Below the pieces are notes generated by a model. The model was not told the origin of the DNA. It saw only the letters and a list, made by a program, of their open reading frames with translations, and searched no databases. Shown in pieces: positions 4,019 through 55,169 of a stretch of 64,000 nt of DNA. A program made the translations under genes and the position numbers. This DNA comes from an uncultured delta proteobacterium (lineage in GTDB: Bacteria; Desulfobacterota; RBG-13-43-22): positions 64,001 to 128,000 of the forward strand of contig CAWJJC010000017.1 of assembly GCA_963843145.1 (NCBI GenBank), in the 5' to 3' direction. The first letter of the stretch is position 1, and each line of letters opens with the position of its first letter.

Positions 4019-7000
4019 CTATTGAAACTGTACCTCCATAATCGGGGTCCCGAAAAGATCTCGCAGTTCCCGCTTTAACCGCGTCGAGGGCTTGATCTTA
4101 TAGACATCGGGCAGGCTGAACAAAACCTGGGTCTGATTAGGACAATGAACCAAAAATTGTACCGGGCAGGTCCCGGGATGGTGACGCAATAAGACGGATA
4201 GATTGGCCAGTTGGTCCCGGCTCAAACCGGTGGCCGAAATGGAGAGGGTGGCCTTAACGGCTGAAGTTTCCTCAGCCTGTTCCAGGGTCATGACCTCCTG
4301 GGCGATGACCTTAACCCCTTTCTCGTCCTTGCTCAGATTACCGGTGATCCATAAGGGGAGCTCATCCTTCAGCAAGGGAGAACACTTGCGGAAGATATCG
4401 GCGAAGACGATCACTTCACAGGAGCCGGTCAGATCCTCGATCGTGGCAAAGGCCATACGATCCCCTTTTTTACTGTTGATTTCCTTGAGACCGGCCACTG
4501 TACCGGCCAGGTGAACCGTTTCTTTGTCGGCCAATTCGGAGAGGTCCTGGATAGCCGTCGCTTTCAAAGCCTGCATGGTCTCCAGAAAGCGGGTCAGGGG
4601 ATGCCCGGTGATGTAAAAACCCAAAATTTCTTTTTCAAAGGCCAGTTTCTGACTTTCCCGCCATTCCTCCAGCGCCGGAGGTTCCGACTCGGGCATATCA
4701 AATCCAGGCTGATCCCCCAAATCAAAGAGGCTGAACTGATTGCCGGTCCTGTCCCGCTGCAATTGTTGACCGATTTCCGTGGCCTCGGGCAAAAAAGCCA
4801 TCAGGCGGGAACGGGCCACTCCCAAAGAATCCATGGCCCCGCACTTGATCAGGCTTTCCAGGACCTTGCGATTGGCCCGAAATAAATCGACCCGTTTACA
4901 TAAATCCACCAGAGAATGGAAAGGGCCTCCCTGCTCCCGCGCCTCGAGGATGGATTCGATGGCCCCCTCCCCCACATTTTTCACTGCCGCTAAACCAAAC
5001 CGGATCTTATCCTCAAAAATGGAAAAATCCATCCGGCTCTGGTTGATATCCGGAGGCAAAACGACAATCCCCTTCTCCCGGCATTCGGTGATATATTTGA
5101 TAATATCGGGAGCGTTGCCCATCTTGCTGGTTAACAAGGCCGCCATAAACTCTAGAGGATAATGGGCCTTGAGAAAAGCGGTCTGGTAGGCAATCAGGGC
5201 ATAGGCCGCGCTATGGGATTTATTGAACCCATAGCCCCCGAACTTTTCCATCAGGTTAAAAACCGTTTCCGCTTTTTTGAGGTCGATCTTCTTCTTTTTG
5301 GCTCCCTGCAGAAAACGTTCCCTTTGCTGGGCCATTACTTCGGTTATTTTTTTGCCCATGGCCCGGCGCAGGATATCAGCCTCACCCATGGAGTAATCGG
5401 CCAGGACGCTGCCCAACTCCATCACCTGTTCCTGGTAAACGATGACCCCATAGGTTTCTTTGAGGATCGGCTCCATCTGGGGCAGCAGATATTCGACCGG
5501 AATCAAGCCGTGCTTACACTTGACAAAGTCATCCACCATGCCGCTTTCCAGCGGTCCGGGACGATACAAGGCCACCAGGGCAATGAGGTCCTCGAAGTTT
5601 TCCGGCTTCATCTTGATCACCAGGTCCTTCATGCCCGAACTTTCCAATTGAAAGACCCCGGTGGTATCCCCTCGTCCCAACAATTCGTAGACGGCCGGGT
5701 CATCTAAGGGGATCTGGGATAGATTCAAAGGCCGGCCCTGAGACCGCTCGATCATCTTTAAGGCGTACTGGATGATGGTCAAATTATTGAGGCCCAGGAG
5801 ATCGAACTTGATCAGACCCGCCTCCTGAACCGATTTCATATCATACTGGGTCAGCGTTTCGCCCTTGGGCCCTTTGTACAGAGGCGTACACTCGACCAGC
5901 GGCTGGGGAGAAATCACTACGCCGGCGGCATGGGTGGAGGCGTGGCGCGGGAGGCCTTCCAGTACCTCGGCAATGGTCAAAAGTTCCCGCACCATCGGGT
6001 CGTTTTCTTTGAGTTCCCGGAGGCGGGGCTCCTTTTCCAGGGCCTCTTTCAGGGTAATCTTCAGAATATTCGGTACCAGTTTGGCGATCCGGTCCACTTC
6101 GCCGTAGGGCATATTCAAGGCCCGCCCCACATCGCGGATCACGGCCCGAGGGAGCATTTTCCCAAAAGTGATGATCTGGGCCACGTGGTCCTGGCCGTAT
6201 TTTCCGACAATATATTTCAGGATTTCATCCCGCCGTTCCACGCAGAAATCCACATCGATATCCGGCAGTTCCTTGCGTTCCACGTTCAAAAACCGTTCAA
6301 AGAACAACCCGTAGACCAACGGGTCGATATCGGTAATCTCCAGGGCGTAGGCCACCAGGCTGCCGGCAGCCGAACCCCGGCCCGGGCCCACGGGAATGCC
6401 TTTTTCCTTGGCATGGCCGACGTAATCGGATACCACTAAAAAATATCCGGAAAATCCCATTGGGTGATGACCGCCAACTCCCTTTCCAACCGCGCCCGGT
6501 AGTCTTTGAACCGCGAGGGCGGGAAGCCGGGATCGGTTTTCTTTGGCTTTCAGCCTTTTTTCCAAACCGGCCCGGGCCTCCCCCTTCAAACGATGATCCA
6601 TGGTCTCTTCGGGAGGCAAAGGGAAACGGGGCAGAAGGGAGTGCCCCAGCGGCAGATCCAAATTGCAGCGTTCGGCGATGCGCACCGTATTTTCGATGGC
6701 TTGGGGATAGTCGAGAAGAGGGCCTGCATTTCTTCCGGTGATTTGAAATAGAGCTGATTGGTGGAAAAACGAAGCCGGTTGTGATCTTGGATCGTTTTAC
6801 CCGTCTGGATACAGAGCAGGACATCATGGGCCCGGGCATGTTCCTGGGCCAGATAATGGCAATCGTTGGTGGCCACTAAGGGGAGATCCAAACGGCGGCT
6901 GAGTTCCACTAGTCCGGAGTTGACGATTTCCTGTTCAGGAATGTCGTTCTTCTGGATTTCCAGGTAAAAACGATCTCTGATCAAAGATCTCCCCCAGTTC

Positions 7001-7489
7001 ACGGGTGTTTCCAACGCCCGTTCGGGGTCACCCCGCAGGAGGGCATGGGGCATCTCTCCGTGCAGGCAGGCGGAAAGGGCGATCAGGCCTTGGTTGTGTT
7101 TTTTCAACAACTCCCGGTCGACCCGGGGCTTGTAATAAAAGCCTTCCAAATGGCCCAGCGTGACCAATTGGAGCAGATTACGATAACCTTTTTCGTTTTT
7201 GCAGAGCAAGACCAGGTGGTAGGCGTTCTCGCTGATTTGCGCTGCTTTCTTTGTGAAAACGGCTTTGAGGGGCCACATACACTTCACAGCCGATAATCGG
7301 TTTCAGGCCATATTTAGGGGCTTGTTTATAAAAATCCACCACCCCGAAAAGGTTGCCATGGTCGGTCATGGTAATGGCCGGCAGTTTAAAGGCCTGGGCC
7401 TTTTCGAAAAGCTCCTTGAGGCGGATACCTCCATCCAGAAGGCTGTATTGGGTATGCACGTGAAGATGAACAAAAGGAGCGTGTTGCAT
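4019..7489 (-). CDS. dnaE: DNA polymerase III alpha subunit (split by several indels in ~6450-7250)
   Basis: FVHLHVHTQYSLLDG PHP start; GPGRGSAAGSLVAYAL, PDIDVDF, KFDLLGL, GYGFNKSHSAAY; OB fold. Three ORF-track pieces join into one ~1150-aa gene. Confidence 0.95.
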
Positions 7490-15870: not shown

Positions 15871-15964
15871 GGTCTTTCAAAAGGTCGAGGTTTATCAGCT
15901 CAACGCTTCCCTCTTCCATCTTCCTTCTCCTTCAGGCACCGCCCACCCCCACTATAAAATAATC

Positions 15965-22583: not shown

Positions 22584-23726
22584 ATGAAACGCGCTTTAAT
22601 TACCGGGGTTACCGGGCAGGACGGATCCTATTTAACCGAGCTATTGCTGGAAAAAGGCTACGAAGTTCATGGCATCCTGCGCCGCAGCAGTTCCTTCAAC
22701 ACCGCTCGCATCGACCATCTGTACAGTGATGCCGGTATCTTCGACAAAACCTTTATCACCCATTACGGGGACCTGACCGATTCCAGCAACCTGAACCGGA
22801 TACTGGAACGGGTCCAACCCGATGAGATTTATAACCTGGCCGCCCAAAGCCATGTCCGGGTTTCTTTTGAGGTCCCGGAGTACACGGCCGAGGTGGACGC
22901 CATCGGAACACTGCGTTTTCTGGATGCCATCAAGAACACGGGCATCAAGACCCGATTTTACCAGGCCTCCACCAGCGAACTGTACGGGAAGGTGCGGGAA
23001 ATCCCCCAGAACGAATCCACTCCTTTCTACCCCCGCTCCCCTTATGGAGTCGCCAAGATTTATGGCTTCTGGATTGTGGTCAACTATCGGGAGGCTTATA
23101 ACCTTTATGCCTGCAATGGCATCCTCTTCAACCACGAATCCCCTCGCCGGGGGGAAACCTTCGTGACCCGTAAGATCACCCGAGCCGCAGCCCGGATCCG
23201 GTTGGGTGTCCAGCAGGAGATGACCTTAGGCAACCTGGAAGCCAAGCGGGACTGGGGGTACGCCCCGGAATATGTGGAAGCCATGTGGAGGATGCTTCAG
23301 CAGGACCAGCCCGATGACTTTGTCATTGCCACCGGAGAAACCCATTCGGTCCGGGAGTTCGTCGAGGCGGCCTTCCGGACCGTCGGCCTGGAGATTGAAT
23401 GGCGGGGCTCAGGGGTCGACGAAGTGGGGATCCTGGCGGGAATTAGTTCGGTACCCCTGGAGGCCGAACGGGACAGCCGGTCAAACGGTCCCAACGGACA
23501 TCGGGAACCGGCGATCCCCTTGGAACGGGCCCAACCGCCGGAGGTTGGTTCGGTCCTGCTGCGGATTGATCCGGTCTATTATCGCCCCACTGAAGTGGAT
23601 ATTCTGATTGGCGATCCGGCCAAAGCCAAGAACAAACTGGACTGGGAGGCCAAGGTAAAATTCGATCAGTTGGCTCGGATGATGGCCCGGGCCGATCTGG
23701 AAAAGGTCAGCCAGCGGGGATATTAG
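22584..23726 (+). CDS. gmd: GDP-mannose 4,6-dehydratase
   Basis: [58 protein letters not shown]. Confidence 0.96.
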
Positions 23727-23729
23727 ACA

Positions 23730-23803
23730 AGAGGGGAGAAGGAAGATGGAAGCGGGAAGATGGGAGAAAAAGCGCAAGGCCTCATTATTCGCTGGGTGGG
23801 GAC
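23730..23803 (+). repeat. GGAAGAT-heptamer direct repeat, copy 1
   Basis: ggaagatggaagcgggaagatgggagaaaa...tcgctgggtgg; related copy at 25824-25894. Confidence 0.6.
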
Positions 23804-23891: not shown

Positions 23892-24581
23892 ATGAAAATT
23901 CAGAAGAAATGGCTTGCCGGGTGGCCCCTGATCCTGCTCTGGGTTTGGGCCGGGATTGTTTGGGCCGGCAACGTTCAAATGCAGGTTCCCGAACCCCGTT
24001 TCGATTTTGGGGAATTGGGTGAAGGCGAAACCGTCAGTCATGATTTTAAAATATTGAATATCGGCGCCGAGGCCCTGCAAATTAAAGATGTCCGCCCCGG
24101 CTGAGGCTGCGCCGTGACCCGGTTTGACCGGGTCATCCCGCCGGGTGGCGAGGGAAAAGTTACCTTAAACGTCAATCTCAGGGGGTTTCAAGGGAAGGTC
24201 TGGAAGGAGGCCACCATTATCAGCAATGACCTCCAGCAGCCTTCTTTCCAGATCGTGCTTCAAGGCAAAGTCCGACCGTATATCGAGCTGCGCCCGGGTC
24301 CCTCCGTTCAATTCTCTCCGGCCGCCCCAGACGCTGATGAAAAAACCATCGACCTGCTGGCGACCGGTCAGGATTTTAAGGTGTTAAAAGTTGAAAATAA
24401 TTTAAAAGAAAAAATCGGCGCCCAATTGGAAACCATCGTCCCGGGCAGTCATTACCGACTCAAGATCACCAATCTTCAGCGGGAGGGGTCTTATTCCGGC
24501 GTCATCAAGTGTTTGACCGATCACCCCCAAAAACCGGAAGTCCTGATACGGATCAGCGCCCGATTCCCTCCAGCAAAATAA
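23892..24581 (+). CDS. exported DUF1573-domain protein, putative selenoprotein (UGA at 24102-24104, PG-U-GC)
   Basis: Two in-frame ORFs joined by one TGA: DVRPG*GCAVTRFDRVIPPGGEGKV; signal peptide; FDFG...HDFKILNIG...LQI DUF1573 pattern; hairpin right after UGA. Confidence 0.85.
24115..24135 (+). promoter_or_regulatory. putative bacterial SECIS hairpin
   Basis: TGACCCGGT-TTG-ACCGGGTCA perfect 9-bp stem; G-containing loop 19 nt after the UGA. Confidence 0.65.
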
Positions 24582-25808
24582 ATGCACATCCTTAACTTGA
24601 CCCATCTCTTCCATCCGGCCCATGGCGGGACAGAGATGGCCCTGCTCGAACTTTCGCGGGAGCTGGTGAAAAGGGATCATCGGGTCACTGTGCTCACTTC
24701 CAATCAACTGGGCTTGGAAGATTTTCAGCGTCCCCAAATTCATCCCTCCCTCCCGGAAGAAGAAACCTGGGAAGGGATTCGGATCATCCGGGTTCGTCTC
24801 CCCCCTCTTCAGCGCCTCCTTTTAGCCAAACTGGGAGCCCTCTCCTTGCGTAGTCGATTGCCGGGCGGGGATAGGCTCTGGTACAGGACCCAGGTGCCCC
24901 ACCTTCCCCAAATGATCCCGCAGGCGAGAAAGCTGAACCCGGATATCCTCTATGCCGTGCCCTTCCCCACCGCCACCCCCTACTATGCCTGGCAGGTGGC
25001 CAGCTATTTAGGCTGCCCCTGGGTAATACAGCCCCATATTCACGAATCCCAGATGAACGAATCCCTGCTGAAGATTCTGAAATGGATCTTTCCCAAGGCC
25101 TCGGCCGTTCTGACCAATACGGAGCCGGAAAAAAAATTCCTGATTTCCCAGGGGATCAAGCCCTCAAGAATCCAAGTTTTTGGACAGGGTCTCTCCGCAG
25201 AGGCTTTGATCCCCGGTGACGGCCAGGCCTTCCGCCGCCGCCAGGGCTGGACCGACGAACCATTGATCGTTTTTCTAGGACGGAAGGTGGAGGGGAAGGG
25301 GATCGACACCCTGCTTTCGGTTATGCCGCGGGTCTGGGACGAAACCCCGCAGGCGGTTCTCCTTTTAGCCGGTCAAACGAGTCCCTATTTTAGGGACCTG
25401 ATGGACCGGCTGCCGGCGGGACGCGATGCCCGCCTTCGGTCTCTGGATAATTTCCCGGAGAAAGAAAAGATCGACCTCCTGGCAGCCGCCGACCTTCTGG
25501 CCCTGCCTTCAGCGGTGGAGAGCTTCGGGGTGGTTTTTCTGGAGGCCTGGGCCCAAAAAAAGCCGGTGATCGGAGCGAATATTCCGGCCGTGGCAGCCCT
25601 GGTGGAAGATGGGAAAGATGGGTATCTGGTGCCCTTCGACGATCCGTCGGCCCTGGCCCAGGCCATGCTCAAGCTATTGAAAGATCCCGATCAACGCCGG
25701 CAAATGGGCGAGGCCGGCGGAGCCAAAGTCCGGGAACGTTTTGAGGTCGGAAAAGTGGCGGAAAAGATGGAGACCCTTTTTCTGGAACTGATAGAAGATG
25801 CCAAGTAA
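24582..25808 (+). CDS. glycosyltransferase family 4
   Basis: HGGTE, FLGRKVEGKG, LPSAVESFGVVFLEAWA. Confidence 0.9.
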   Translation: MHILNLTHLFHPAHGGTEMALLELSRELVKRDHRVTVLTSNQLGLEDFQRPQIHPSLPEEETWEGIRIIRVRLPPLQRLLLAKLGALSLRSRLPGGDRLWYRTQVPHLPQMIPQARKLNPDILYAVPFPTATPYYAWQVASYLGCPWVIQPHIHESQMNESLLKILKWIFPKASAVLTNTEPEKKFLISQGIKPSRIQVFGQGLSAEALIPGDGQAFRRRQGWTDEPLIVFLGRKVEGKGIDTLLSVMPRVWDETPQAVLLLAGQTSPYFRDLMDRLPAGRDARLRSLDNFPEKEKIDLLAAADLLALPSAVESFGVVFLEAWAQKKPVIGANIPAVAALVEDGKDGYLVPFDDPSALAQAMLKLLKDPDQRRQMGEAGGAKVRERFEVGKVAEKMETLFLELIEDAK

Positions 25809-25823
25809 CAAATGCTTGGACCT

Positions 25824-25894
25824 GGGGTGAGAGATGGAAGAGGGAAGATAGAAGATGGAAGAAAAGAGAAAGCTCCTGATCGCTGGGTGGACAG
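25824..25894 (+). repeat. GGAAGAT-heptamer direct repeat, copy 2
   Basis: gagatggaagagggaagatagaagatggaagaaaa...tcgctgggtgg. Confidence 0.6.
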
Positions 25895-26177: not shown

Positions 26178-27050
26178 ATGAGCAACCAAGGCCCACATTC
26201 CGTTTCCGTCGTTATCTGCACCCTCAACCGGGAGGAGTCCCTGCTCCATGTCCTTCGTCTGTTGAAGGACCAGACGGTCCGGCCCTTGGAAATTCTGGTG
26301 GTGGACCAAAGCACGCGATCCTTCCCCAAAGTAATGGCCTATCTCCAAGGAGAGGGTCAGGACATTCGGCATCTGACCCTATCGCCTCCTTCCACTACGG
26401 CCGCTCGTAATCTGGCCATCCGGGAGACCCAAGGCGAAATCGTGCTTTTCCTCGATGACGACGTCCTTTTTCAGCCCGACCTGATCCGGCATCATCTGGA
26501 AAATTATGAAGATCCTTCCATCGGAGCCGTGAATGGCCGGATCATGTACGAAGGGGCCGAGGAAAACAACGAACCCTGGGCGGCCTGCCTGACCCGCACC
26601 GGGGCTTACCTCCGGAACTTCACCACCAACCAGCGCTGTGAGCTGCCCACCCTGTACGGTTGCAATATGTCCATCCGCCAAAAGGTCTTGCAAGAGGTCG
26701 GGGATTTCGATTTGAACTATTGGGGAAATTTCTTGTGGGAGGAAGTGGATTACGCCCTGCAAATCCGCCGTAAAGGCTACCGGATTCAATACGAACCCCG
26801 GGCCTCGGTCTTTCATGTGATGGTCAAGCAGGGAGGCAGCCGAAACCCCTTGCCTAACACGTACCAGGAAAGCACCATCTTCAATGACTGGTATTTCTTC
26901 TTTAAATATATCTCTTGGGGCTACTGGCCCTTCCTCTTCTACCGGCAGAAAAGGGTCTGGTGGAATTACGGACGACGTAACCGGATGAATATCCTGCCTC
27001 TATTCAAACAAATCCAAAAAGCTTGGCGAAAATCACCTGCCCCCCAATGA
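26178..27050 (+). CDS. glycosyltransferase family 2
   Basis: VSVVICTLNR, ILVVDQS, ARNLAI, LFLDDD, GCNMSIR. Confidence 0.9.
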   Translation: MSNQGPHSVSVVICTLNREESLLHVLRLLKDQTVRPLEILVVDQSTRSFPKVMAYLQGEGQDIRHLTLSPPSTTAARNLAIRETQGEIVLFLDDDVLFQPDLIRHHLENYEDPSIGAVNGRIMYEGAEENNEPWAACLTRTGAYLRNFTTNQRCELPTLYGCNMSIRQKVLQEVGDFDLNYWGNFLWEEVDYALQIRRKGYRIQYEPRASVFHVMVKQGGSRNPLPNTYQESTIFNDWYFFFKYISWGYWPFLFYRQKRVWWNYGRRNRMNILPLFKQIQKAWRKSPAPQ

Positions 27051-28310: not shown

Positions 28311-28322
28311 GGTCCACCCACT

Positions 28323-28524
28323 TAAATCCGAAATCCGAAACCCGAAACCCGAAACAAATCCAAATCATCAAAATTCAAAACATTACCTCCTCAGGGACGC
28401 GAGATTCGAAGTATCCGAATTAACCCACCGCCCCTCCCAGCGAGGGAGGGGAAATCGTTTTGGTCATTTGCATTTTGGAATTTTGAATTTGTTTCGAATT
28501 TCGGATTTCGAGCTTCGAGTTTAA
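28323..28524. repeat. heptamer inverted repeat with inner CCCCTCCC/GGGAGGGG hairpin
   Basis: aaatccgaaatccgaaacccgaaacccgaaacaaat... paired with ...atttgtttcgaatttcggatttcgagcttcgagttt. Confidence 0.8.
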
Positions 28525-29693: not shown

Positions 29694-29765
29694 TTTTTTT
29701 TAGCCGCAGACCCACACAGGCATAAACATACTATTTGTTTCTACCATTGGAGCCGAAGTGATCCT

Positions 29766-29895
29766 TAAATCCGAAATTCGAAGCACGAAATCGACTCGGC
29801 TGAGCCTTTCGGTAAACTCAAGGCCCTGAGCTTGTCGAAGGGCTCGTCGCAGGCCGAAACAAGCACGAAGGTCCAAAATCCAAATGTTCAAAACA
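29766..29895. repeat. heptamer repeat arm with doubly nested CTGAGC-core inserts
   Basis: ...gactcggctgagc[ctttcggtaaactcaaggccctgagcttgtcgaagggc]tcgtcgcaggccgaaacaagcacgaagg... Confidence 0.8.
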
Positions 29896-30075
29896 ACATC
29901 TCCTGGTGGTGGAAAGCTAATTTATTGCCCGAAGGGCCTGACGGTTAGGGGGGCGGCAAGTCGCCGCCCCCCTGTCCTGCCTTTGTCTGCGGCAAAAAAA
30001 CTTTTCCGATCAGCCAGATTAGAAGGAAGCATAGTCAGGCCGGGGCTAAAAGTCAAACCGCTTTTCCGGACAAGG

Positions 30076-30104: not shown

Positions 30105-30153
30105 AAGCGGGTCCTTGGCCGATTACTGCAGGGGAAAGAAAGGGATTTCATCT

Positions 30154-31116
30154 ATGCCCAAGGCTTTGATTACCGGCATATCCGGACAGGATGGCTCGTA
30201 CCTCACGGAGCTCCTTTTGGATAAAGGCTATGCCGTACACGGCATCGTCCGTCCGGCCACCCTGGAAAATCCAGAGATGCGCCTGGCCCATCTCCAGGCC
30301 CACCTGGGCCGGATCCAGCTCCACGCCGTAGAATTGAATTCCCTGACCAGCACCCTTCGCGTCCTCAGGGAAATACAACCCCAGGAGTGCTATCACCTGG
30401 CCTCGGAAAGCTATGTCAGCCCCGGCTTTGATAACCTGCGAGAAATGATGCATGCCAACCTCTATACTACCCACAACCTGCTGGAGGGCCTCCGACAAAT
30501 CAACAACGACTGCCGGATCTATTTTGCCGCCAGCAGCGAAATGTTCGGCGATGCGCCCCATTCCCCTCAGGATGAAGAGACTCCGTTTCACCCGCATTCG
30601 GCTTACGGCTTGTCCAAATTAGCGGGCTTCCACCTTGGCCGCTTTTACCGCCGCCATCATGGGCTGCACCTCTCCAATGGCATCCTCTACAATCACGAAT
30701 CGCCGCGACGAGGTCCGCAGTTTGTTACCCGCAAGGTTTCCTCTTTCGTCGCCGGGCTAAAAAAAGGCCGATCCGGTAAGCTCCATATGGGCAACCTCGA
30801 AGCCTGCCGGGATTGGGGCCATGCCCGGGACTACACCCAGGCCATGTGGCGTATGGTGCAGCAGGAGCGTCCGGATGACTACGTGATTGCCACCGGGGTC
30901 CCCCATACGGTTCGGGACCTGCTCTCGGCTGCCTTTGCTTGCATTGGAAAGGATTACCAGGACTATGTGCAGGTAGACCCGGTTTTTTTCCGGGAAAAGG
31001 AACCGGTGGATCTAATCGGCAACGCTCAAAAGGCCCATCGTCTTTTAGCCTGGCAGCCCCGGATATCCTTTGAGGAAATGATCCGCGAAATGGTCGAAGC
31101 GGACCTGGGAAGGTGA
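30154..31116 (+). CDS. gmd: GDP-mannose 4,6-dehydratase, second divergent copy
   Basis: [57 protein letters not shown]. Confidence 0.85.
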   Translation: MPKALITGISGQDGSYLTELLLDKGYAVHGIVRPATLENPEMRLAHLQAHLGRIQLHAVELNSLTSTLRVLREIQPQECYHLASESYVSPGFDNLREMMHANLYTTHNLLEGLRQINNDCRIYFAASSEMFGDAPHSPQDEETPFHPHSAYGLSKLAGFHLGRFYRRHHGLHLSNGILYNHESPRRGPQFVTRKVSSFVAGLKKGRSGKLHMGNLEACRDWGHARDYTQAMWRMVQQERPDDYVIATGVPHTVRDLLSAAFACIGKDYQDYVQVDPVFFREKEPVDLIGNAQKAHRLLAWQPRISFEEMIREMVEADLGR

Positions 31117-31132
31117 AGACCTTCTGGACTAT

Positions 31133-31224
31133 TAACTTCGAAGCACGAAACGATTTTGTTTTGATCTTTTGGATTTTGGACCTTCGTGCTTGTTTCGAAT
31201 TTCGTGCTTCGAATTTCGAATTTG
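31133..31224. repeat. heptamer repeat, 'empty' copy without insert
   Basis: Reverse complement aaattcgaaattcgaagcacgaaattcgaaacaagcacgaaggtccaaaatcc matches the 29766 copy minus its inserts. Confidence 0.8.
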
Positions 31225-45204: not shown

Positions 45205-46057
45205 GTGGATTTCACTTCTAAACGCAGGCTTCGGGTAACCGCCGATGATTTTGGGTTTACCCCGGGAGTTACCGACGGGATCCTCGAAGCGCATGACGAA
45301 GGAATTGTGACCCACACCTCCATCATGGCCGGGGGATTGGACTTTGACCGGGCCGTGGCCTTATCTCGCCAAAGGCCCGGTCTGGGAGTGGGCGTCCATT
45401 TAACCTTAACCTGGGGGCACCCCCTTTCATCTCCTTCCAGCGTCCCCAGCCTGGTGGGAGCGGATGGGAAATTAGTATCCTTGGGCGAGATCCTAAAAAG
45501 ATTTCTGATGGGCCGACTGGACCGGGGGGAGGTGGCCAGGGAATGGGAGGCCCAAATTCAAAGGGTTTCCCATTCCGGGATTAGCCCTACCCATCTGGAT
45601 AGCCACCATCACCTGCATCTCCTGCCGGGGCTCCTGCCGCTGGCGGCCCAATGTGCTCACAAATACCACGTACCCTGGCTGAGAAGGCCGGCTGAGGCCA
45701 TTTGGCAAGGGAGTCCCTTCCCATTCCGCACTGGTCAAACGCGTCATCTTCCGCCTCCTGACTCTCAGGTCCTGGCCGCTTCCCGCGAGTGACGCCTTCC
45801 GGGGGCTGTCCATTCAGGGCCGGCGGGATTACGCTGCCCGGCTCACCAGGACCATCCGCGGATTACCCCTGGGAACCACGGAATTCATGGTCCACCCCGG
45901 GAAACCGGATGCCCTCCTGGAAAAAGAGGACACCTTTGTCTGGGAAAGAGCGATCGAATTGAAAGGGCTCTGCGATCCCGTGGTCAAACGACTTCTCAAG
46001 GAGTTAGAAATTATCTTGGACCGGCCGGTCCCCGGGTCCGCTGAAGCGTCATTATGA
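45205..46057 (+). CDS. YdjC/ChbG/HpnK family carbohydrate deacetylase (+1 indel near 45710)
   Basis: TADDFG, GVHLTL, THLDSHHHLH; the shifted frame continues EFMVHPG...RAIEL..LCD and ends in an ATGA overlap with the next gene. Confidence 0.88.
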
Positions 46058-46791
46058 AGCTATCGGTCATCGTTCCCGTTTACAATGGCGCCGTCTTTAT
46101 TTCTGAAACTTTCCAGGAATTAGTGGATTATCTGGAAAAGCTGGAGGAAGAATACGAGCTCCTTTTTGTAGATGACGGCAGTCGGGATCATACGGCATCG
46201 ATTTTGGAGGAACTTGTCGGGAACCACCCCCGGGTCCTTCTGCTCCGGAACGAGACCAATCGAGGGAAAGGGTACTCCGTACGGGTTGGGATGAACCGGG
46301 CCCAAGGAGATTTGTTGGTTTTTACCGACGCCGATCTGGCTTACCCGCCCCCGGAGATTGGCAAGATCGTCCAAACCTTGCGAGAAGGGGTGGATCTGGC
46401 CATCGCCACCCGGGTGGCGCCGGGCTCCCGTTTCATTATGAGCCCCGAGTTTTTCGGCTATATCTATACCCGCCATATTGGCAGCCGCTTCTTTAATGGA
46501 CTGGTCAGAAAGGTGCTGGGCCTTTCCATTTTTGACACCCAGGCCGGACTGAAAGGGTTCAGCCGAAAGGCCAAAGAGATCATTTTCCCGCGGCAGACGC
46601 TGGAAGGCTTTACTTTTGATGTGGAACTGATTTATATCGCCGAAAAATTCGGATTGACGGTTCGAGAAGTTCCGGTCATCTTCCGCTATTTCTCGGAACC
46701 CACCACTGTTTCCTTTTTGAGGCAGTCTCTGGCCAGCCTAAAGGACCTTTTTACCATTCGTTCGCAGGACCATAAAGGCAACTATCAATGA
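46054..46791 (+). CDS. GT2 polyprenyl-phosphate glycosyltransferase (dolichyl-P glucosyltransferase-like)
   Basis: LSVIVPVYN, VDDGSRD, NRGKGYSV, FTDADL, DTQAGLK, FTFDVEL. Confidence 0.9.
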   Translation: MKLSVIVPVYNGAVFISETFQELVDYLEKLEEEYELLFVDDGSRDHTASILEELVGNHPRVLLLRNETNRGKGYSVRVGMNRAQGDLLVFTDADLAYPPPEIGKIVQTLREGVDLAIATRVAPGSRFIMSPEFFGYIYTRHIGSRFFNGLVRKVLGLSIFDTQAGLKGFSRKAKEIIFPRQTLEGFTFDVELIYIAEKFGLTVREVPVIFRYFSEPTTVSFLRQSLASLKDLFTIRSQDHKGNYQ

Positions 46792-46850
46792 AGACGACCC
46801 CACAAAAAGTCCATCCGCAATAGCCCTTCATAAAAACGGAAGAAGGCGAC

Positions 46851-49531
46851 ATGAAAATCATTGCCCAAGCGAAAAACCGACTTTCCGAATTACTCGGCAG
46901 AACTTTTCTCGGAGGAGCCCTGGTCGTGCTCCTGCCTTTCCTGCAGCGACTGCTCTACCTGAATGGTTTGTTTTACGGCCGGGACTTCACTGAACTCATC
47001 GGAGCCCGGGGCTACTTCTATCACCAGTTACGCCAGGGAAAACTGGTCCTCTGGGATGCCGTTCAGGCCACCGGAATACCCTTCCCTACTTATTTTTTCG
47101 ACCTTTTTAACCCTCTTTCTTTGGTCTATACCTTTCTGTTGCAGGATGGCTACCTGAGGAGTAATCCAGCCCAATGGATGCTCACCATCCATTGTTCCCT
47201 GGGGGCGCTGGGGGCCTACCTTTTAGGGTTATCGCTGAACCTGGGCCGGACCGCCGCCGTGGTCATGGGGGTGATCATGGGCTGCTGCGGCGTGGTAGTG
47301 ATCAAAAGCGTAGAGCCGATGATGGTTCATACCTTTGTTTGGGCCCCCTTCGTCTTTTTATTTCTGCAACGTGCCCGCCGGCGAGGATTGAAACGGGAAG
47401 GATTATGGGCCGGGGTTTTTATGGGCCTTTGTTTTATGGGCGGACATCCTCAAATTTTTTATTATATCGGAGTGGCGGTCCTGCTCTATGCCCTCTATGG
47501 GCTGGTTGTGGACACCGAAGAGTCGGGGGTCCGGGCGGCCTGGGCCACGGCCTTCCGTATTTACCTGCCGCTGTCCCTTTCTTTTGTACTGACCAGCGCC
47601 CCCCAGTTGGCCCAGCAACTGGTCACCCTCGTTTGGGGTCCTGCGGAAGTGATAGAAGCCAGTACCCGCACCCTTCTAATTCACAGTCAAAGCGGTTCAG
47701 CCGACTTCAGCATGCTCTATACTTTCCTTTTCCCGCAATTAGAAGGGCGGTCACGGGGAAACTTTTTTTTACGTAGGCATCCTGCCCCTGGTTCTGGCCT
47801 GGGTGGCGGTCCTCCAGTTCAAGCCTCGTTCCGAGGCCGGTTTTTGGAAGGTGCTGGTTATCGCCTTTTTTACTTTTGATGATGGGAGGCAACCTGGGGA
47901 TCCACAAGATCCTGGTCTATGTGTTGCCCGGTTTCAAGTACTTTCCGCCTTCCCAGCCGTTATGTCTTTATAGTTTCCTTGGGATTGCTGGTCCTGGCCG
48001 GGTTTGGGGTTGCCCGACTACTCTCGGTTAAACGGGCTGAGGAGTTCGCCGGATTCACCCGGGGTCTGGCTATTATCATTGGCGGCTTTCTCCTGGTGAT
48101 GATCTCCCTGGTCGTCGTCAGCCACCTCGAGTTGATTAAAGACCAGGGGCCAATCATCCTGGTCCTGCATTCCGTGACCGGCGTCATTCTTTTTCTGGGG
48201 GCTACCTGGTTCGTATTCCGGAGGGTCCAGGAGGGCGAGACAGGCATCCGGCTTCAGTTTTTGATCGTGGCCATAGTGATTCTGGATTTGGCCTTTTACT
48301 ATCCCACAGCGGGGCTCAATTTCAATACGGTGAAGAGCGAAAGGGCCTACGGACCGGATCCCAGTGAGGTCACCGCGGCCATGGATGACCTCGCCAGGGA
48401 TCTGGGCCGTCTTTCCGCGGAAGGGCCTTCCCGCATCCTGATCGGCCTTCAAGGGGTTCGGGAACCCTGGGTAAGGAATGTCTCCCAGTCCGCTTTTTAC
48501 CGCTATCGGGTGCGGACTTTTAATTCCATTGACGGCTACCCGGAACGCCTTCACCCTCTGGGATACTGGCAATTGGTCTGGGAGGAGAGACTGATCGAGA
48601 TGCCCAGGGCGATCAGCCTCTTGGGGGTAAAATACTTGGAAAAAGGGCGCCCGGAAATTGCCGCCCGGCGGTCGCGGTGGGATCTGCTCGGTTTCTCCCA
48701 GGCCGCCATCCGCCTGAACCCGGGAGAAAAGGTCACTCAACTGACCCTGGACGCCCGGGTTGATGGCCTCGAAGGCAAAAGCCCGGGGCTGATTGTGGCG
48801 GAGATCGGACTGGTGGAGGGCACTCAACTGATGGGTAGTTGGCCGATATCGCTCGAACAACTTTCGAAAGGGGCGCCTCTGGAAATCCCCCTGGCCGGAC
48901 CCGTATCTGCTACAGAAATCCTGATGGCCTCCACCCAGCCCGAAGGAAAAGTCAGGATCGAAAAGGTCTCGGTCAACGGGAGTCCGGTTTCCGACACCCT
49001 GGAGACCACACCGGTCCGCAGTTGGCTGGTCCGTAACGAGCATCCCCAGTCCTTGGCCTTTTTCGTCTCCCGGGCGGCGGTCTTTAAGGACCAATCGGCT
49101 TACCTGGAGGCCCTTTATTCTGAGGACCCCACCCGTTGCGTGCTCTTTCGAGAGACCCCTCCCGGGTACCAGACCCCGGCCGCAATGACGGCGAATCCGG
49201 GGGGGAGGTCAAAATCCTTCACTGGGGAGACGAAAAGGTAGACCTTCAGGTGAAGGCCCGACGCCCCGGATATCTGGTCATGACCCAGGCGGCTTATCCC
49301 GGATGGACCGCCTGGGTGGACGGTCGAAAAACTTCGATCCTCAAGGCCTATGGATTTCTGACCGCGCTCCCGATTGGGCCGGGATCCCATCAGGTCCGCT
49401 TTGCCTATGGCGCCCCCTGGCTGGTGGCCGGGCTGTTTATCGCACCGCTCTGGCTCTTGGGGCTTCTCTTCTGGACGTTCCGGCGGAAAAAAGGCAGGCC
49501 ATCTGAGGGGATTTCCGAGAGACCCCGATAA
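46851..49531 (+). CDS. YfhO family GT-C membrane protein (split by several indels at ~47750-47950 and ~49200)
   Basis: LVLWD...TGIP, GGHPQ, YVGILPL, FRLPSRY, YLVMTQAAYPGWTAWVDG, GSHQVRFAY; many TM segments. Confidence 0.85.
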
Positions 49532-49546
49532 CCTCCGGTGGTTGTT

Positions 49547-50230
49547 TCAACCGTTCAGGGTACAATGGAGCGTATACCGGTACTTGGAGTAGGAAAAATT
49601 ATTCTCCAGCTTGCGGGCGGCATACCCCAGCCCTGAAAGGGTTTGTCGCAATTGCTTCTCGTCATAGAGATAAAGGGAAGACGTTCTCAGGCTCAGCTTC
49701 GGATCGTCCCGGATATTGGTAATGATGAAGGAGAGCAGTTTCCTGAAAAATTTTTTTCTCATGCCGGTCAGCAATTGGGAGATGGCGTCGACCGCTTTCG
49801 AATAACCGGGGGGGACAATGTCGGAAATAATGATTCGGGTTTTTGAGTCACAGAGTCTTTTCAGCTCCCCCAGCATGTTCTTAACTTCGTCTTCCTTCAT
49901 GTAGTGGATGACACCGTTGATAATAATTAAAGAAACCGGTTCCTTTATGTTCTCTAGCGAGTGAACTACCTGGAGGTTGGGAAAGACGCCAAACCTATTC
50001 CTCAATTGGTCTAAAAAAAATTCCGATTTATCATACAAATAAATTCTTTCGACCTTATCCTTGATCAAATGGGAAACATCCCCCAATCCGGCCCCAAAAT
50101 CCAGCACTACATCGCGTTTTGAAAAACCGAAATATTTCTGGTAGGAGTCCACAAAATAGCCGGCCCAGATCTCCATGATGCCGTGATCGATTTTTGTTGA
50201 ACTGAAATGTTGATCCCACTCGGAAGGCAT
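49547..50230 (-). CDS. class I SAM-dependent methyltransferase
   Basis: VLDFGAGLG, IINGVIHY, IIISDI; visibly AT-richer than neighbours. Confidence 0.8.
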   Translation of the reverse strand: MPSEWDQHFSSTKIDHGIMEIWAGYFVDSYQKYFGFSKRDVVLDFGAGLGDVSHLIKDKVERIYLYDKSEFFLDQLRNRFGVFPNLQVVHSLENIKEPVSLIIINGVIHYMKEDEVKNMLGELKRLCDSKTRIIISDIVPPGYSKAVDAISQLLTGMRKKFFRKLLSFIITNIRDDPKLSLRTSSLYLYDEKQLRQTLSGLGYAARKLENNFSYSKYRYTLHCTLNG

Positions 50231-50410
50231 CGGGTTTTTCTCCGTTGGTTCTGTCAGCGCCGTTTAATTCCAGAGTCGGGCCAGGGACTGGCCCGGGCTA
50301 AGCTCGTACTGACTAGTTAGTTCTTTCCTACCAAAAACCCTCCCCCGCCGTCAAGGCCGTATTACCGTGTAAATAGAATTGACCACCGTTTTCGAGTAGT
50401 TGTTTTTGAT

Positions 50411-50439
50411 TGTCATCCCGGACTCGATCCGGGATCCAG
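50411..50439. repeat. REP-like palindrome
   Basis: TGTCATCCCGGA-CTCGA-TCCGGGATCCAG, same family as the REP inside the MITE at ~9235. Confidence 0.6.
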
Positions 50440-50490
50440 GCAGCTCGAACATTCCTTCGGGACGATCCGAAATCTTTTTTAACCCCCCGG

Positions 50491-53256
50491 CTATTCACCC
50501 GGTTCAGGTTTTCCACGCCTCCGGGCCTTCCAACCCCAAACGAGCAGGGCGGAAAGAGTGACCAAGGTGACGGCCAAGCCCAGGTAGAAAGGATAGAAAC
50601 GGAAAATAAATTCAACCCGGTGCTCCCCCTTGGGTACATAAAGGCCCCGGAGGCCGTAATTGACTTTCAGGACGGGGGCGGGATGGGTATCGATCTCGGC
50701 CTTCCAAAAGGGGGAATAGGTATCGCTGAGGACCAGGAATTTATTTTGGTCCGACCTGGTTATGACTTTTATATAACGAGGAGAATACTGAAGCAGCGAG
50801 GCCTCCCGGGTGGAAAAGGAGGACTCCGGGGGCTCCCGGTAGCCCGGGGGGAACTGAGTTATCAGGAGGGTCTTCCGGGGGTCTAGATTTTCCAGGTGTT
50901 CCAGCAACTCGAGCTCATCTGAAATGGCTCTCGCCTTGCCGATCATAAAGGCGCGGGGGAGATAGGCGCGGTTGTAATACACCCCTGGTCCCTGCGGTTG
51001 AAAACGACGGAAGAGCAGGGTCTGGAGGTCCTGATGATTGATCAGGAGTTTTCCAATCACTAAGCCCTCCAGGCCGGAAACAGCCTGCAGTGATATCTTG
51101 GCGGTTTCAACGGAGGGTTTTAACTGGGCGGCAAATTCGTAGGCATGTCCCTGGTATCCTTCTCCGGGAATATCCCAAGAATCGACCACCCGGGCTTTCT
51201 GGTGGGCACCGTTCAAGCCCGGGCGGTCAATAGCCCATTCGGCGGTTTCGAGGCCGGCCCGCACCGGGATCCGGAGGGAGGAACCGTCCGGCTTATCCAG
51301 AATAATCCAAGCCACGGTCCGGCCCTGGGGCACGGCGGAGGAATGGGTTAAAAAGGATTGAACCGTTAGTTGCGAAACGGAGGTCGGCTGGGGCAGGTCA
51401 AACTCCCGATCACCGAACTTTCCTCCGATTTTAATGATTATCGCTTCTGGTGGAGGGTGCGGAGAGGCACCAATAAAATATTTGACATTCAACAAATCCA
51501 AGAGCAGGGGGTTTTGATCAACTCGTTTAAAAACCTCCAGATATTCCCTGGGGATGACTGTGTGAACATATCCCAGGAGGTCGGACAGGTCGTAGGGGCA
51601 GATGCCATTCTGATAGCAGATGAGGGAGGACAACCAATCATCCGTATTGTCTATCCGGTACGGGGAATGATCCTGCCTGAGTTGGGCGACGATAGTTTTT
51701 GCCAGGGGCACTTCCGACCGACTGGGATCCTTCCCTGAATAACCGCCCTCCACCCAGGCCAGCAGCAGTAAATCCACGCTGACCAGCAAGATCAGGACCC
51801 CTTTGATCCCGGTAAGGGAATGGGACCGATTTCTGAACCATACCAGGGAATAGAAAGCCGCCCAAAAAAATAAAAACCAAAGAAAATCTTTTTTGAGTAT
51901 CTTCCACCATCCCCAAAAATCCCGCCCGGCTTCCTGGCCGGGCAGGGCAAATCCCACCAGGACCAGACTGGTTACGCCCCCCGCAAGGGCCAGCCAGAGC
52001 AGCCCGTAAAGTGACCTGAACCGCGTCGGCTGTGAGCTAGGGTCGTCGGGTTCGTCCAAGAAACGTTGCGTACCAAATCCAGCCAATACAGCCAGGGGAA
52101 AGGTAGTAAGGATGATAAATTTAGCCGGGATCCGAAATTGATTGAGCCCGGGCAGGTAATCGTAAAGGAGCTTATAAAGGGGAGTGGCGTTGCCTAAGGC
52201 GGCGATAAAAGAAAAAAAGGCTAACAGGCCCAGAAAAGTAATCCGCTTATCCTTGGATTGAATAAGCGCCCAAAGGGCCAGGAGTAAAGGGATCAGACCG
52301 ACATAGCCGAATTCCTCATCGACGGCCTCGGCGGTCCAAATCGTGTAGCCCGGGATCAAGAAATGCACCAGGTTCAAAATATGAAAGGGGAAAAGGGTAT
52401 TCCATTCATAAGAACGGGTCCCATGATAGGTGGCCAGACTGGTGGATAATAAGGGCCACAACTGTATGGCTGAAAATCCCAGGCAGAATATACCCAGGAC
52501 CCCGAAATAGCCGGCCTCCCGGGCCAGGTCTTTCCAGGCCCGCACCCACAACCTTAGGAAAAGGGTAAAGAGAAAATAGGCGGCCAGATACAACAGCAGA
52601 AAATAAAAAATATTGGGATGACCGGCGAGAAAGGAGAAGGATAGGAAAAGGCCGGCCAGGGCCGCCCAAAGGGCTCGTCTTTGAAGAAGGGCCTTGTCTA
52701 AGAAGTAGAGGACCAACGGGAACCAGGTCACCGTTTCAACGATATTTCTTATACTGGCCCGGCCTACCAGGAAACCTCCGGAAATAAAACAGAGGGAGCC
52801 GACCAGGGATGCTACCCGAGACAAGCCTAACTGTCGGATATAGAGATAGGCAAAGACCCCGCCCAGCCAGAAATGCAAGGCGTGGATCCAGGAAAGCAGA
52901 TAAGGGTTAAAAAAATGGGGGGTTAAAATCCCGGTCAACAGATCCAGCGGATAAAAGACCCCAAAGTCCTCGGCCAGGTACGGCATCCCGGTCCCGATAA
53001 AGGCATCCCAAAGGACCAGGATCCCCTGGCGCAGGTGTTGATAAAAAAAGGCCCGCTGGGGAGCGAGCTCGACAAAGTCCCCGGCCCAATAAAGTGTTTC
53101 TCCCGGAAGGAGAAAGGCCCGGAATTTAAAAAGAACAAAGACCGCCAGGAAACACAGTACCCAGACATCATTTCGGTAGGCGGAGGATCTGTTTTTCGGC
53201 GATGAATTTACCCCTCCCGTGGTCTGGATCTTGTCGCTCCCTGATTTATATTTCAA
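50491..53256 (-). CDS. YfhO family GT-C membrane protein
   Basis: LWD.FIGTGMP, FYPL, LAGHPN, YVGLIPL, FRIPAKF, LDLLNVKY, LPRAF, LVLSDTYSPFWKA, GEHRVEF. Confidence 0.88.
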   Translation of the reverse strand: MKYKSGSDKIQTTGGVNSSPKNRSSAYRNDVWVLCFLAVFVLFKFRAFLLPGETLYWAGDFVELAPQRAFFYQHLRQGILVLWDAFIGTGMPYLAEDFGVFYPLDLLTGILTPHFFNPYLLSWIHALHFWLGGVFAYLYIRQLGLSRVASLVGSLCFISGGFLVGRASIRNIVETVTWFPLVLYFLDKALLQRRALWAALAGLFLSFSFLAGHPNIFYFLLLYLAAYFLFTLFLRLWVRAWKDLAREAGYFGVLGIFCLGFSAIQLWPLLSTSLATYHGTRSYEWNTLFPFHILNLVHFLIPGYTIWTAEAVDEEFGYVGLIPLLLALWALIQSKDKRITFLGLLAFFSFIAALGNATPLYKLLYDYLPGLNQFRIPAKFIILTTFPLAVLAGFGTQRFLDEPDDPSSQPTRFRSLYGLLWLALAGGVTSLVLVGFALPGQEAGRDFWGWWKILKKDFLWFLFFWAAFYSLVWFRNRSHSLTGIKGVLILLVSVDLLLLAWVEGGYSGKDPSRSEVPLAKTIVAQLRQDHSPYRIDNTDDWLSSLICYQNGICPYDLSDLLGYVHTVIPREYLEVFKRVDQNPLLLDLLNVKYFIGASPHPPPEAIIIKIGGKFGDREFDLPQPTSVSQLTVQSFLTHSSAVPQGRTVAWIILDKPDGSSLRIPVRAGLETAEWAIDRPGLNGAHQKARVVDSWDIPGEGYQGHAYEFAAQLKPSVETAKISLQAVSGLEGLVIGKLLINHQDLQTLLFRRFQPQGPGVYYNRAYLPRAFMIGKARAISDELELLEHLENLDPRKTLLITQFPPGYREPPESSFSTREASLLQYSPRYIKVITRSDQNKFLVLSDTYSPFWKAEIDTHPAPVLKVNYGLRGLYVPKGEHRVEFIFRFYPFYLGLAVTLVTLSALLVWGWKARRRGKPEPGE

Positions 53257-53268
53257 CTTTTTAGGCCT

Positions 53269-53985
53269 CTAAAGCTGAAATCCGGCCTTGACGGCATCGT
53301 TCCGAAACATCTTTACGGTTTCCAGTGAATATTCGGTTAGATCTTTCCCGGTTAAATTTAATTTCTTAAGTATATCTACCGTACTGGTAATAATGTGGCA
53401 GCCGATCGAGTTAGCCTGGAAGACATTGAGGAGCTCGCGAGGGCTGGCCCAAATCAATTCTTGCTGGGGATGAGGGCGCAAAATTTCAACCGCGGCGGCC
53501 ATCAGGGGCAGGGGATCACGCCCGGTATCGGCAATTCTCCCGGCGAAAACGGAAATGAACGAAGGGGCCCCACCGGCCAAGGCCCGGCTGACGTCGATCA
53601 CCTGGGACAAGGTCAAAAGGGCCGTTACATTCAGCTTGACCCCCTGAGTAGATAATTCCGTGATGAGGGGTACGGAGGATTGACCAAGCGTGTTGGTGAC
53701 TGGTATCTTGACATAGACATTCTCACCCCAACCGCGTATGAGCAGCGCCTGGCGTTTCATTTCCTCGAACTCGTCTGAAAATACCTCGAAGGAGATCGGC
53801 CGGTCCGGGATACTCCTCAGGATGTCCAAGGCGAAGGCCGGGTAATCACTGATCCCGGCTTTACGCATCAGAGTCGGATTGGTAGTAAAACCCTGGATGA
53901 GGGGGTTGCGGTACATTTCGATCATCTCGGATTTAACCGCTCCGTCAGCGAAGATCTTGACTGTTAGTTCGGAAAAGCTGCTCAT
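53269..53985 (-). CDS. transaldolase (short type, sugar-cluster associated)
   Basis: KIFADGA, GFTTNPTL, ISFEV, YVKIP, NVTA, SVFAGRIAD, WASPRE. Confidence 0.9.
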   Translation of the reverse strand: MSSFSELTVKIFADGAVKSEMIEMYRNPLIQGFTTNPTLMRKAGISDYPAFALDILRSIPDRPISFEVFSDEFEEMKRQALLIRGWGENVYVKIPVTNTLGQSSVPLITELSTQGVKLNVTALLTLSQVIDVSRALAGGAPSFISVFAGRIADTGRDPLPLMAAAVEILRPHPQQELIWASPRELLNVFQANSIGCHIITSTVDILKKLNLTGKDLTEYSLETVKMFRNDAVKAGFQL

Positions 53986-54524
53986 AGGTTTGTCTCCTCA
54001 CATTGATTTAGAATGATCGACAGCGCTTCCGTCAAGGTATTGACTCTATAATTCGGTTGATCGGGCTGTTTTTCATTGTATTCGTAATTAACAAAGATCG
54101 TCCGGCAGCCGGCCCGCCGTCCGGCTTCAATATCCTTCCAGCGGTCACCGATCAGGAAGCTGGCCGCCAGGTCAATATGGTAGCGCTGAGCGCCTTGAAG
54201 GATCAGGCCCGGTTCCGGTTTGCGGCACCGGCAATGATCCTCCGTGTCGTGGTAACAGGTGAGGATATCATCCAAAGGCAGCTCCCGGAGGAGAAAGCGA
54301 TGTATCGCTTCAACCCCTTCTCGGGTCTGCACCCCTCGAGCCACGTCAGGTTGATTAGTGACCACGACCAACAGGTAGCCGGCTTCCTTGAGTGTCGGTA
54401 ACACCGACCGGACTTCATCCGGTATAACCAATTCGCTCAGGTTGGAAGGGGGGTACGGTTTGGCCTCTCTGACAATAGCCTGATTGATGACGCCATCCCG
54501 ATCCAGAAAAACGGCTTTAGGCAT
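53982..54524 (-). CDS. gmhB: GmhB-like HAD sugar-bisphosphate phosphatase
   Basis: FLDRDGVIN, VTNQ, CYH....C.CRKP.PG, IGDRWKDIEAG. Confidence 0.85.
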   Translation of the reverse strand: MPKAVFLDRDGVINQAIVREAKPYPPSNLSELVIPDEVRSVLPTLKEAGYLLVVVTNQPDVARGVQTREGVEAIHRFLLRELPLDDILTCYHDTEDHCRCRKPEPGLILQGAQRYHIDLAASFLIGDRWKDIEAGRRAGCRTIFVNYEYNEKQPDQPNYRVNTLTEALSIILNQCEETNL

Positions 54525-54558
54525 ACGGATTATTTTTCAATGAAACCCATTAAACCTA

Positions 54559-55167
54559 CTAGATTTTGTCGGACGTTTCACTTTCCCATTTGGTTTGAGC
54601 CGCCTTAAGCCGGGGATGGGAAACCAGAAGGTGCCAGAGTACCGCTTGAAAGGCCTCGGTATGGGGAGTGCTATGATTGGAGTTGACGGTTGGGATAATA
54701 ACACAGGCATCCGCCGTCCGGGCGGTGAATCCGCCGTCCCTGCCCACCACCCCACAAATTCTTGCCCCCACGGCTTGGGCGTACTGTAGAGCGGAAATCA
54801 GGTTGGGGCTGATATTTCTCTCCGCGTCTCCCCCGCCGACGGAGAAAACCAGAATCAAGTCCTGTTTCCTTAACCGGCTGGTCCGCAGCCATTCCACAAA
54901 AACACTCGACCATCCGTCGTCGTTGGTCCTGGCCGTCAGTTCGGAAACGTTATCCGTCGGGGCGTAGGCTTCCATTCCGGTAATTTTCCGGAAATCATTG
55001 ACGGCATGGGAGGCATTGGCGGCGCTTCCACCCACTCCCAGGATAAATAGACGCCCATCCTGGTCCCGGGTGTCGACCATCAGTCGAACTACCTTTTCGA
55101 TCGAATCCGGATCCAGTTGTTCTACAACCTTTTTAGCCTCAGCCAGATATTCCGCTACGAACCCCAT
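54559..55167 (-). CDS. gmhA: GmhA-like SIS phosphosugar isomerase
   Basis: LGVGGSAANASH, TARTND, FSVGGG, S.NL, GRDGG, HTEAFQ. Confidence 0.8.
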   Translation of the reverse strand: MGFVAEYLAEAKKVVEQLDPDSIEKVVRLMVDTRDQDGRLFILGVGGSAANASHAVNDFRKITGMEAYAPTDNVSELTARTNDDGWSSVFVEWLRTSRLRKQDLILVFSVGGGDAERNISPNLISALQYAQAVGARICGVVGRDGGFTARTADACVIIPTVNSNHSTPHTEAFQAVLWHLLVSHPRLKAAQTKWESETSDKI

Positions 55168-55169
55168 GG

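Follow-up and report, generated by a model that had tools for sequence, protein, structure and literature searches.

A TGA-split gene ahead of glycosyltransferase genes in an uncultured delta proteobacterium as a predicted member of the OS_HP2/DUF1573 selenoprotein family

Two open reading frames (ORFs) that share one frame and are separated by a single TGA lie among glycan genes in a 64,000-nt stretch of contig CAWJJC010000017.1 (the window) from an uncultured delta proteobacterium. The arrangement raises the question whether the locus holds two genes, a damaged gene or one selenoprotein gene, and what its product might do. The explanation we favor, at a probability of roughly 0.58, is an OS_HP2/DUF1573 selenoprotein with an exported two-Ig fold that would act in envelope thiol-redox chemistry. 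Coordinates are window positions on the plus strand unless a minus strand or a related locus is named.

Reading of the frame agrees with the first-pass annotation, which had described two same-frame ORFs split by one TGA. From the ATG at 23892 to the TAA at 24579-24581 there is a single frame of 229 codons, whose sole internal TGA is codon 71 (24102-24104) in the context R-P-G-stop-G-C-A-V; read as selenocysteine (Sec), it gives U71-G72-C73. The second ORF opens in the same frame as the ATG with a GTG at 24114, and a GAGG formed by the UGA and the next Gly codon stands 7 nt ahead of this GTG (span 24102-24116). Based on the frame, profile scores and alignment of related loci, positions 23892-24581 are assigned to an OS_HP2/DUF1573 family selenoprotein gene encoding 229 aa with one TGA read through.

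With C standing for U, the read-through protein scored 103.1 bits against the NCBIfam model NF041425, "OS_HP2 family (seleno)protein" (cut-off 100), and 67.7 bits against Pfam DUF1573, PF07610 (cut-off 26.1), over residues 32-127. Either half of the split gene, scored alone, fell under both cut-offs. The NF041425 cut-off was also passed by 5/5 related read-through genes tested. Genomes were scanned with a peptide pattern located 3' of the TGA, which identified 182 related stretches; the analysis was carried out on the best 80 of these, and the other 102 may hold Cys forms. All of the best 80 were titled deltaproteobacteria or Thermodesulfobacteriota, and the closest among them was syntenic with the window and shared 93% protein identity (L001), which points to a related deltaproteobacterial (Desulfobacterota-type) host. 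Column 71 is TGA in 79 of the best 80 loci, with no stop at any other aligned column. Cultured relatives that share this TGA include Desulfoferrobacter suflitae (L017), Desulfacinum hydrothermale (L034) and Desulforhabdus sp. TSK (L020). The codon of Cys73 (24108-24110), the partner residue in the UxC motif, starts with TG in all 81 rows (window plus the best 80). In a more distant set, 190 retrieved proteins supplied 280 domain rows, and 212 of these rows cover the motif site. Among these 212 domains, Cys was found at column 71 in 162 and at the partner position in 172, CxC was found in 160, and the first Cys was absent in 50. The earlier proposal of a DUF1573 protein with U-G-C in place of a conserved C-G-C, and the expectation that an alignment would show Cys or TGA at this column, are therefore both borne out. 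One locus, L040, retains the hairpin and has ACA (Thr, 4537-4539) in the Sec column; Sec appears to have been lost there with no switch to Cys.

Explanations by a sequencing error, by a pseudogene, by a genuinely split gene or by reassignment of TGA throughout the genome are largely refuted, and we regard them as extremely improbable. The window does contain frameshifts, in dnaE and in a subtilase gene, and the GAGG ahead of the GTG would suit a split gene. Against these points, the TGA occupies the same column in 79/80 independent assemblies (best 80 of 182) with no further stop, and a split would sever one Ig domain. A second independent gene starting from GTG 24114 was rejected, as the GTG is present in just 31/81 rows (window plus the best 80). 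Genome-wide reassignment (tables 4 and 25) was rejected as well: TGA is an ordinary stop in the window and ends 12 of 40 long ORFs examined, which were hand-picked from 151 listed. Among the 190 retrieved proteins, 41 begin just past the TGA site and one ends at it, a sign that gene callers cut such genes in two, as the first-pass annotation had said of standard callers. The gene is real, its product is probably exported, and its internal "stop" very probably codes for selenocysteine. The result is mainly of value for annotation: the two ORFs should be merged and named OS_HP2 family selenoprotein, and many database entries of the OS_HP2/DUF1573 family are truncated halves.

The claim that the selenoprotein was hidden or new did not hold, since the family is already curated as OS_HP2/DUF1573 (NF041425; PMC13188914 Table 1). 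Zhang and Gladyshev described OS_HP2 in 2007 from Olavius symbionts as a new family of selenoproteins (PMC1976440), and a published table lists it under pfam07610 and gives it a UxC motif (PMC2398784). Reviews list a "DUF1573 domain-containing protein, UGC" (PMC9312934, PMC13188914), and one of them ranks the DUF1573 selenoprotein as "predicted with high confidence", that is, predicted rather than verified (PMC13188914). The family names OS_HP2 and DUF1573 had no match in the available parts of the BSepDB text and supplement (PMC13326102). We found no functional study of DUF1573 in the openly accessible literature that was searched. Because the read-through protein passes the model of a curated family described in the literature, it is a member of that known family: an ordinary member of a selenoprotein family reported in 2007, with a putative function. 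It shares with the known OS_HP2/DUF1573 selenoproteins the curated model passed, the UGC/UxC motif, the deltaproteobacterial range and a stem-loop after the TGA. There is no difference of kind between them; this gene has a GT4-GT2 neighborhood, and its product is the short two-Ig form of about 230 aa, compared with about 350 aa in most Syntrophobacteraceae loci.

We examined two hairpins 3' of the UGA. Hairpin 1 (24114-24136) is the best SECIS candidate based on folding, covariation, recoding and tree simulations. All nine Watson-Crick pairs of the perfect 9-bp stem noted in the first-pass annotation are present (24115-24123 with 24127-24135); counting a basal G-U, the stem has 10 pairs, and its loop is UUG. 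The fold of the first 59 nt gave a z of -2.4, with 3/200 shuffles equally stable; for the 100-nt fold versus shuffles z was -1.0, which is not significant. Recoding the same peptide synonymously 200 times never gave a fold as stable as hairpin 1. Across 82 fourfold sites, the lowest entropies were those of the third bases of codons 80 (0.00 bits) and 76 (0.10 bits), followed by 1.24 at the next site and a median of 1.76. These two bases pair with each other as C-G, which makes 24119:24131 a near-invariant wobble pair. Of 24,310 wobble pairs, the one that covaries most strongly joins codons 75 and 81 at their third bases (24116:24134; z 10.4); these bases are paired in 82%, with G-C, C-G and U-A all common. 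In pair counts, 45 cells were changed on both sides versus 22.8 in shuffled data, and slid registers gave lower values. When sites evolved independently along the gene tree in 6,000 simulations, none reached the observed covariation. For the 15:33 pair, contrasts between sister rows were scarce and did not all point one way (7/24 differed, 2 of the 7 being fully compensatory). Because its wobble pair tops the covariation among 24,310, hairpin 1 is under RNA-level selection. The SECIS-like hairpin placed 3' of the UGA by the first-pass annotation is thus a selected stem-loop as judged by covariation, wobble constraint and recoding.

Hairpin 1 itself begins 9 nt after the UGA and its covarying pair begins 11 nt after it; in the E. 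coli fdhF element the spacing from the UGA is 11 nt. The consensus bSECIS has a G in the first two loop positions and a loop located 16-37 nt from the UGA (PMC13188914). The UUG loop of hairpin 1, at 19 nt, lacks the consensus G, and the same failure of the G rule was seen in 69 of the best 80 rows; all bSECIS consensus rules were satisfied in 8 of the 80. With the top three pairs of hairpin 1 opened, the loop in the window begins with GG at 16 nt. Hairpin 2 (24137-24153), with a GG-type loop 38 nt past the UGA, was assessed by folding, covariation and recoding. It carries the consensus G in 78 of the best 80 rows, at a distance of 38-39 nt in 76. The case for it is weaker: slid controls were equal in covariation, and 38/200 recodings folded as well. 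No Rfam match was found at the locus with E up to 1. Non-consensus SECIS elements exist according to both reviews (PMC9312934, PMC13188914). For specialists, the covariation is useful in that it supports a real recoding hairpin even though the consensus loop rule is broken.

In the mechanism that we propose, the hairpin 9 nt past the UGA would recruit SelB with Sec-tRNA, and with little doubt codon 71 would be read as Sec in this manner. The UGA could instead be read mainly as Cys by a selC* tRNA-Cys(UCA) with SelB*, yielding a C-G-C protein. Deltaproteobacteria do have selC* tRNAs, and an opal codon was suppressed by such tRNAs in E. coli (PMC5389517); the non-consensus loop of hairpin 1 also speaks for such decoding. 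In that study, however, all selC* genomes had a full Sec apparatus, and the UCA form with cysS* was confined to a Desulfobacterales subgroup (PMC5389517), whereas the TGA described here spans far more lineages; we consider Cys decoding very unlikely. No selA, selB, selD or tRNA-Sec genes were found within the 64-kb window, where Rfam detected two tRNAs, both ordinary, and no tRNA-Sec was found in the best 80 related loci. A scan of the window gave no second convincing in-frame-TGA gene. A scan of the same kind on the best 80 loci yielded 260 motif matches, nearly all of them noise. Bearing indirectly on Sec machinery, two genes followed up from these loci matched (seleno)protein models below the cut-offs: a DedA-rhodanese fusion with CxU and an in-frame TGA in L013 (15236-16186, plus strand), a locus that belongs to the clade of the window, and an AhpD/CMD-like gene with CxxU and an in-frame TGA in L044 (20197-20571, minus strand).

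The protein probably starts with a signal peptide or membrane anchor (codons 1-25, 23892-23966), judged from hydropathy and a model helix at residues 11-22; the cleavage site is putative. The N-terminus has a basic start followed by a hydrophobic stretch, which is found in 76/81 family rows (window plus the best 80), and a lipobox-like motif occurs in 2/81. The hydrophobic stretch makes export probable, in line with the signal peptide suggested in the first-pass annotation. A structure model built with Cys in place of Sec from 86 sequences (mean pLDDT 92) placed two beta-sandwich domains after the helix. Ig-like domain 1 (DUF1573/NF041425, residues 32-127, 23985-24272) is delimited by the profiles, the model and fold matches. 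Ig-like domain 2 (residues 130-225, 24279-24566), delimited by the model, fold matches and hydropathy, has no Pfam family and contains a third Cys (207). In the model, U71-G72-C73 sits in the loop joining strands 62-69 and 74-78 of domain 1. The best fold match was the VesB Ig domain (Z 12.1, rmsd 1.9 over 96 residues), and matches with Z 9-11 were found to HYDIN, CEP192, pilus chaperones and P. gingivalis 2qsv. The Ig-like fold that had been proposed is supported by the model, and two PapD/ASH-like Ig domains are predicted with high confidence. A profile match to 2qsv had an E of 8.7e-08; a single-sequence PDB search returned nothing at E below 0.1. The fold is shared with the ASH/PapD-like/HYDIN-VesB-CFA65 Ig domains (PF22544; PDB 4lk4, 2qsv, 2ys4), from which the protein differs in sequence (8-16% identity), and 2qsv has no cysteines at the aligned motif. 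We know of no redox role for ASH/PapD-like Ig domains.

For the U-G-C loop we favor, with somewhat better than even odds, thiol-disulfide exchange in the envelope similar to that of the redox-active Ig folds CsgC and nDsbD. The loop would cycle between a selenenyl-sulfide and a reduced form and would swap disulfides with envelope proteins docking on the Ig surfaces; an exported thioredoxin fed from CcdA/DsbD would reduce it again. This function seems likeliest in view of the thioredoxin fusions and thioredoxin/CcdA neighbors, of Sec having been kept, and of the example that CsgC offers. Among 98 proteins of 300-1100 residues scanned for fusions, out of 148 further homologues, 15 carried a thioredoxin fold, and CGC was kept in 15/15; 14 of the 15 fusions form one family, and 8 of the 15 have no CxxC in the thioredoxin domain. 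An exported CIPC thioredoxin and a CcdA-type gene lie beside 7 of the best 80 loci (L023 and L038 have such a thioredoxin neighbor), a context that arose or was lost 2 to 5 separate times on the tree. CsgC has an Ig fold with a CxC that is redox-active at -139 mV and resembles nDsbD (PMC3173608), a CXC active site has been reported for MauE (bioRxiv 10.64898/2026.03.05.709764), and most uncharacterized selenoproteins are probably redox proteins (PMC13188914 section 7).

The fusion family is of interest in its own right. It combines an exported DUF1573 domain with a TlpA-like thioredoxin (P0062, P0067, P0073, P0086, P0100, P0116, P0123, P0127, P0132, P0138, P0143, P0171, P0179, and P0186); its CGC is invariant, and the CxxC of the thioredoxin has often turned into CxxS or disappeared.

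The protein has in common with CsgC (curli) a periplasmic Ig-like beta-sandwich with a CxC-type pair; redox activity was measured in CsgC and is proposed by analogy here. CsgC, a single-domain protein without Sec, carries its CxC at the BC loop/strand C (PMC3173608), whereas the motif here follows the third and precedes the fourth of the listed strands in domain 1 of a two-domain protein. nDsbD, DsbD's N-terminal domain, is an Ig fold whose cysteine pair is reduced by a thioredoxin-fold domain, and this reduction is echoed in the thioredoxin fusions and thioredoxin/CcdA neighbors of DUF1573 homologues. It differs in having Cx5C in the FG loop and in being part of a membrane protein (PMC3173608). 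By description, the position of the pair in the loop appears different from both. Neither CsgC nor nDsbD was among the matches listed in three fold searches, though a relation may exist.

Several observations count against the favored explanation. The window holds no Sec machinery, the loop of hairpin 1 is non-consensus, 14 of the 15 fusions are a single family and 8 of the 15 lack CxxC, L040 has Thr at the Sec column, and 50/212 distant domains lack the first Cys. In addition, the gene in the window has no thioredoxin or CcdA neighbor, and the structures that it resembles most are Ig domains without catalysis. In a different role, U-G-C would form a selenenyl-sulfide, structural or switch-like, and so stiffen an envelope Ig scaffold, adhesin or chaperone without catalytic turnover, for example in a setting beside a CtpA protease and a divergent polysaccharide deacetylase. 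The top fold matches to non-catalytic PapD/ASH/VesB domains have Z of 10-12, the domain is repeated up to 7 times in distant homologues, and a divergent polysaccharide deacetylase gene is found near 41 of the best 80 loci, mostly after an S41 peptidase gene. Such a bond would nevertheless be costly, with Sec and a selected hairpin kept in 79 of the best 80 loci, and Sec/Cys pairs usually mark reactive residues. The probable redox nature of most uncharacterized selenoproteins (PMC13188914) also speaks against it, and we consider it unlikely, at about one chance in five in plain terms. Alternatively, the loop might be a periplasmic binding site for a soft metal or metalloid (Cu, Hg, As), given that genes of the ArsP-type permease, ArsR and arsenate-reductase-like kinds are found close to several of the thioredoxin/CcdA-linked copies. 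These are a minority (7 of the best 80 loci, partly second copies) and there are no metal-handling genes near the window copy, so that metal binding is quite unlikely. Envelope thiol exchange remains our preferred function. For the DUF1573 family it offers a functional lead, through the thioredoxin fusions, the thioredoxin/CcdA neighbors and the CsgC-like design, of modest value to specialists.

We also considered the adjacent genes. A GT4 glycosyltransferase gene (24582-25808; profile, gap, tree) begins on the base after the stop codon and is a neighbor conserved in one clade. A GT2 glycosyltransferase gene (26178-27050; profile, neighborhood counts) is the second conserved neighbor in this GT4 clade. 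Upstream, gmd, encoding GDP-mannose 4,6-dehydratase (22584-23726; TIGR01472, 572 bits, cut-off 415), ends 165 nt before the ATG at 23892 and is present in the closest relatives only (4 of the best 80 loci). The first-pass annotation had correctly placed the gene directly before GT4 and after gmd. Rex lies immediately upstream in 5 of the best 80 loci. The order selenoprotein gene, GT4, GT2 is found in the window and in 11 of the best 80 loci, and these 12 rows form one clade (99/99) with one change on the tree. We looked for repeated glycan linkage across independent lineages and did not find it (one clade, 12/81 rows, window plus the best 80). The glycan context is thus inherited synteny: the position ahead of GT4-GT2, though tight, is the inherited arrangement of one clade, and the suggestion that the glycan cluster tells much about the protein is not supported.

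A role in the adjacent glycan pathway, by redox control or scaffolding of glycosylation and with Sec read-through coupled to translation of GT4, would gain from the short gap to GT4 (0-12 nt in 11 of the 12 GT-linked rows) despite a varying upstream gene. It is set against the single clade and its one change, 69 of the best 80 loci that are unlinked, and the scarcity of gmd. In addition, no export signal was noticed in the glycosyltransferases, whereas the selenoprotein appears exported; glycosyltransferases of the GT4/GT2 sort are normally cytoplasmic. We regard this role as improbable. GTG 24114 after the GAGG is a possible re-initiation site. The GTG was found in 12/12 rows of the GT-linked clade with 0 changes versus 3.7 expected; a control site showed 1 change versus 3.5 expected, and the fixed GTG is therefore weak evidence. 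Scans for promoters and terminators gave results no better than chance. As a long shot, DUF1573/OS_HP2 may be a third, Sec-using class of redox-active Ig fold, fed by a CcdA-thioredoxin relay and decoded with a non-consensus tandem-hairpin SECIS, in which, in the GT4 clade, read-through or re-initiation would tie glycosyltransferase expression to selenium supply.

Several other features of the window were recorded. The dnaE gene (4019-7460, minus strand) contains at least two frameshifts and the subtilase gene (61613-63725, minus strand) is spread over two frames, both probably resulting from assembly indels. A second gmd-like gene is located at about 30150-31116. Intergenic degenerate heptamer-like repeats, direct and inverted, occur at 28321-28524, 29764-29921 and 31131-31223 between glycosyltransferase and gmd genes. 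A second glycan block (45205-61303) contains GT2 genes, a YfhO-like membrane protein, GtrA, heptose-type nucleotide-sugar genes and a transaldolase. A purine-rich short repeat is present three times (15904-15921, 23729-23766 and 25824-25861; 0 expected in shuffles), and two of the three copies directly follow a stop codon in the glycan cluster.
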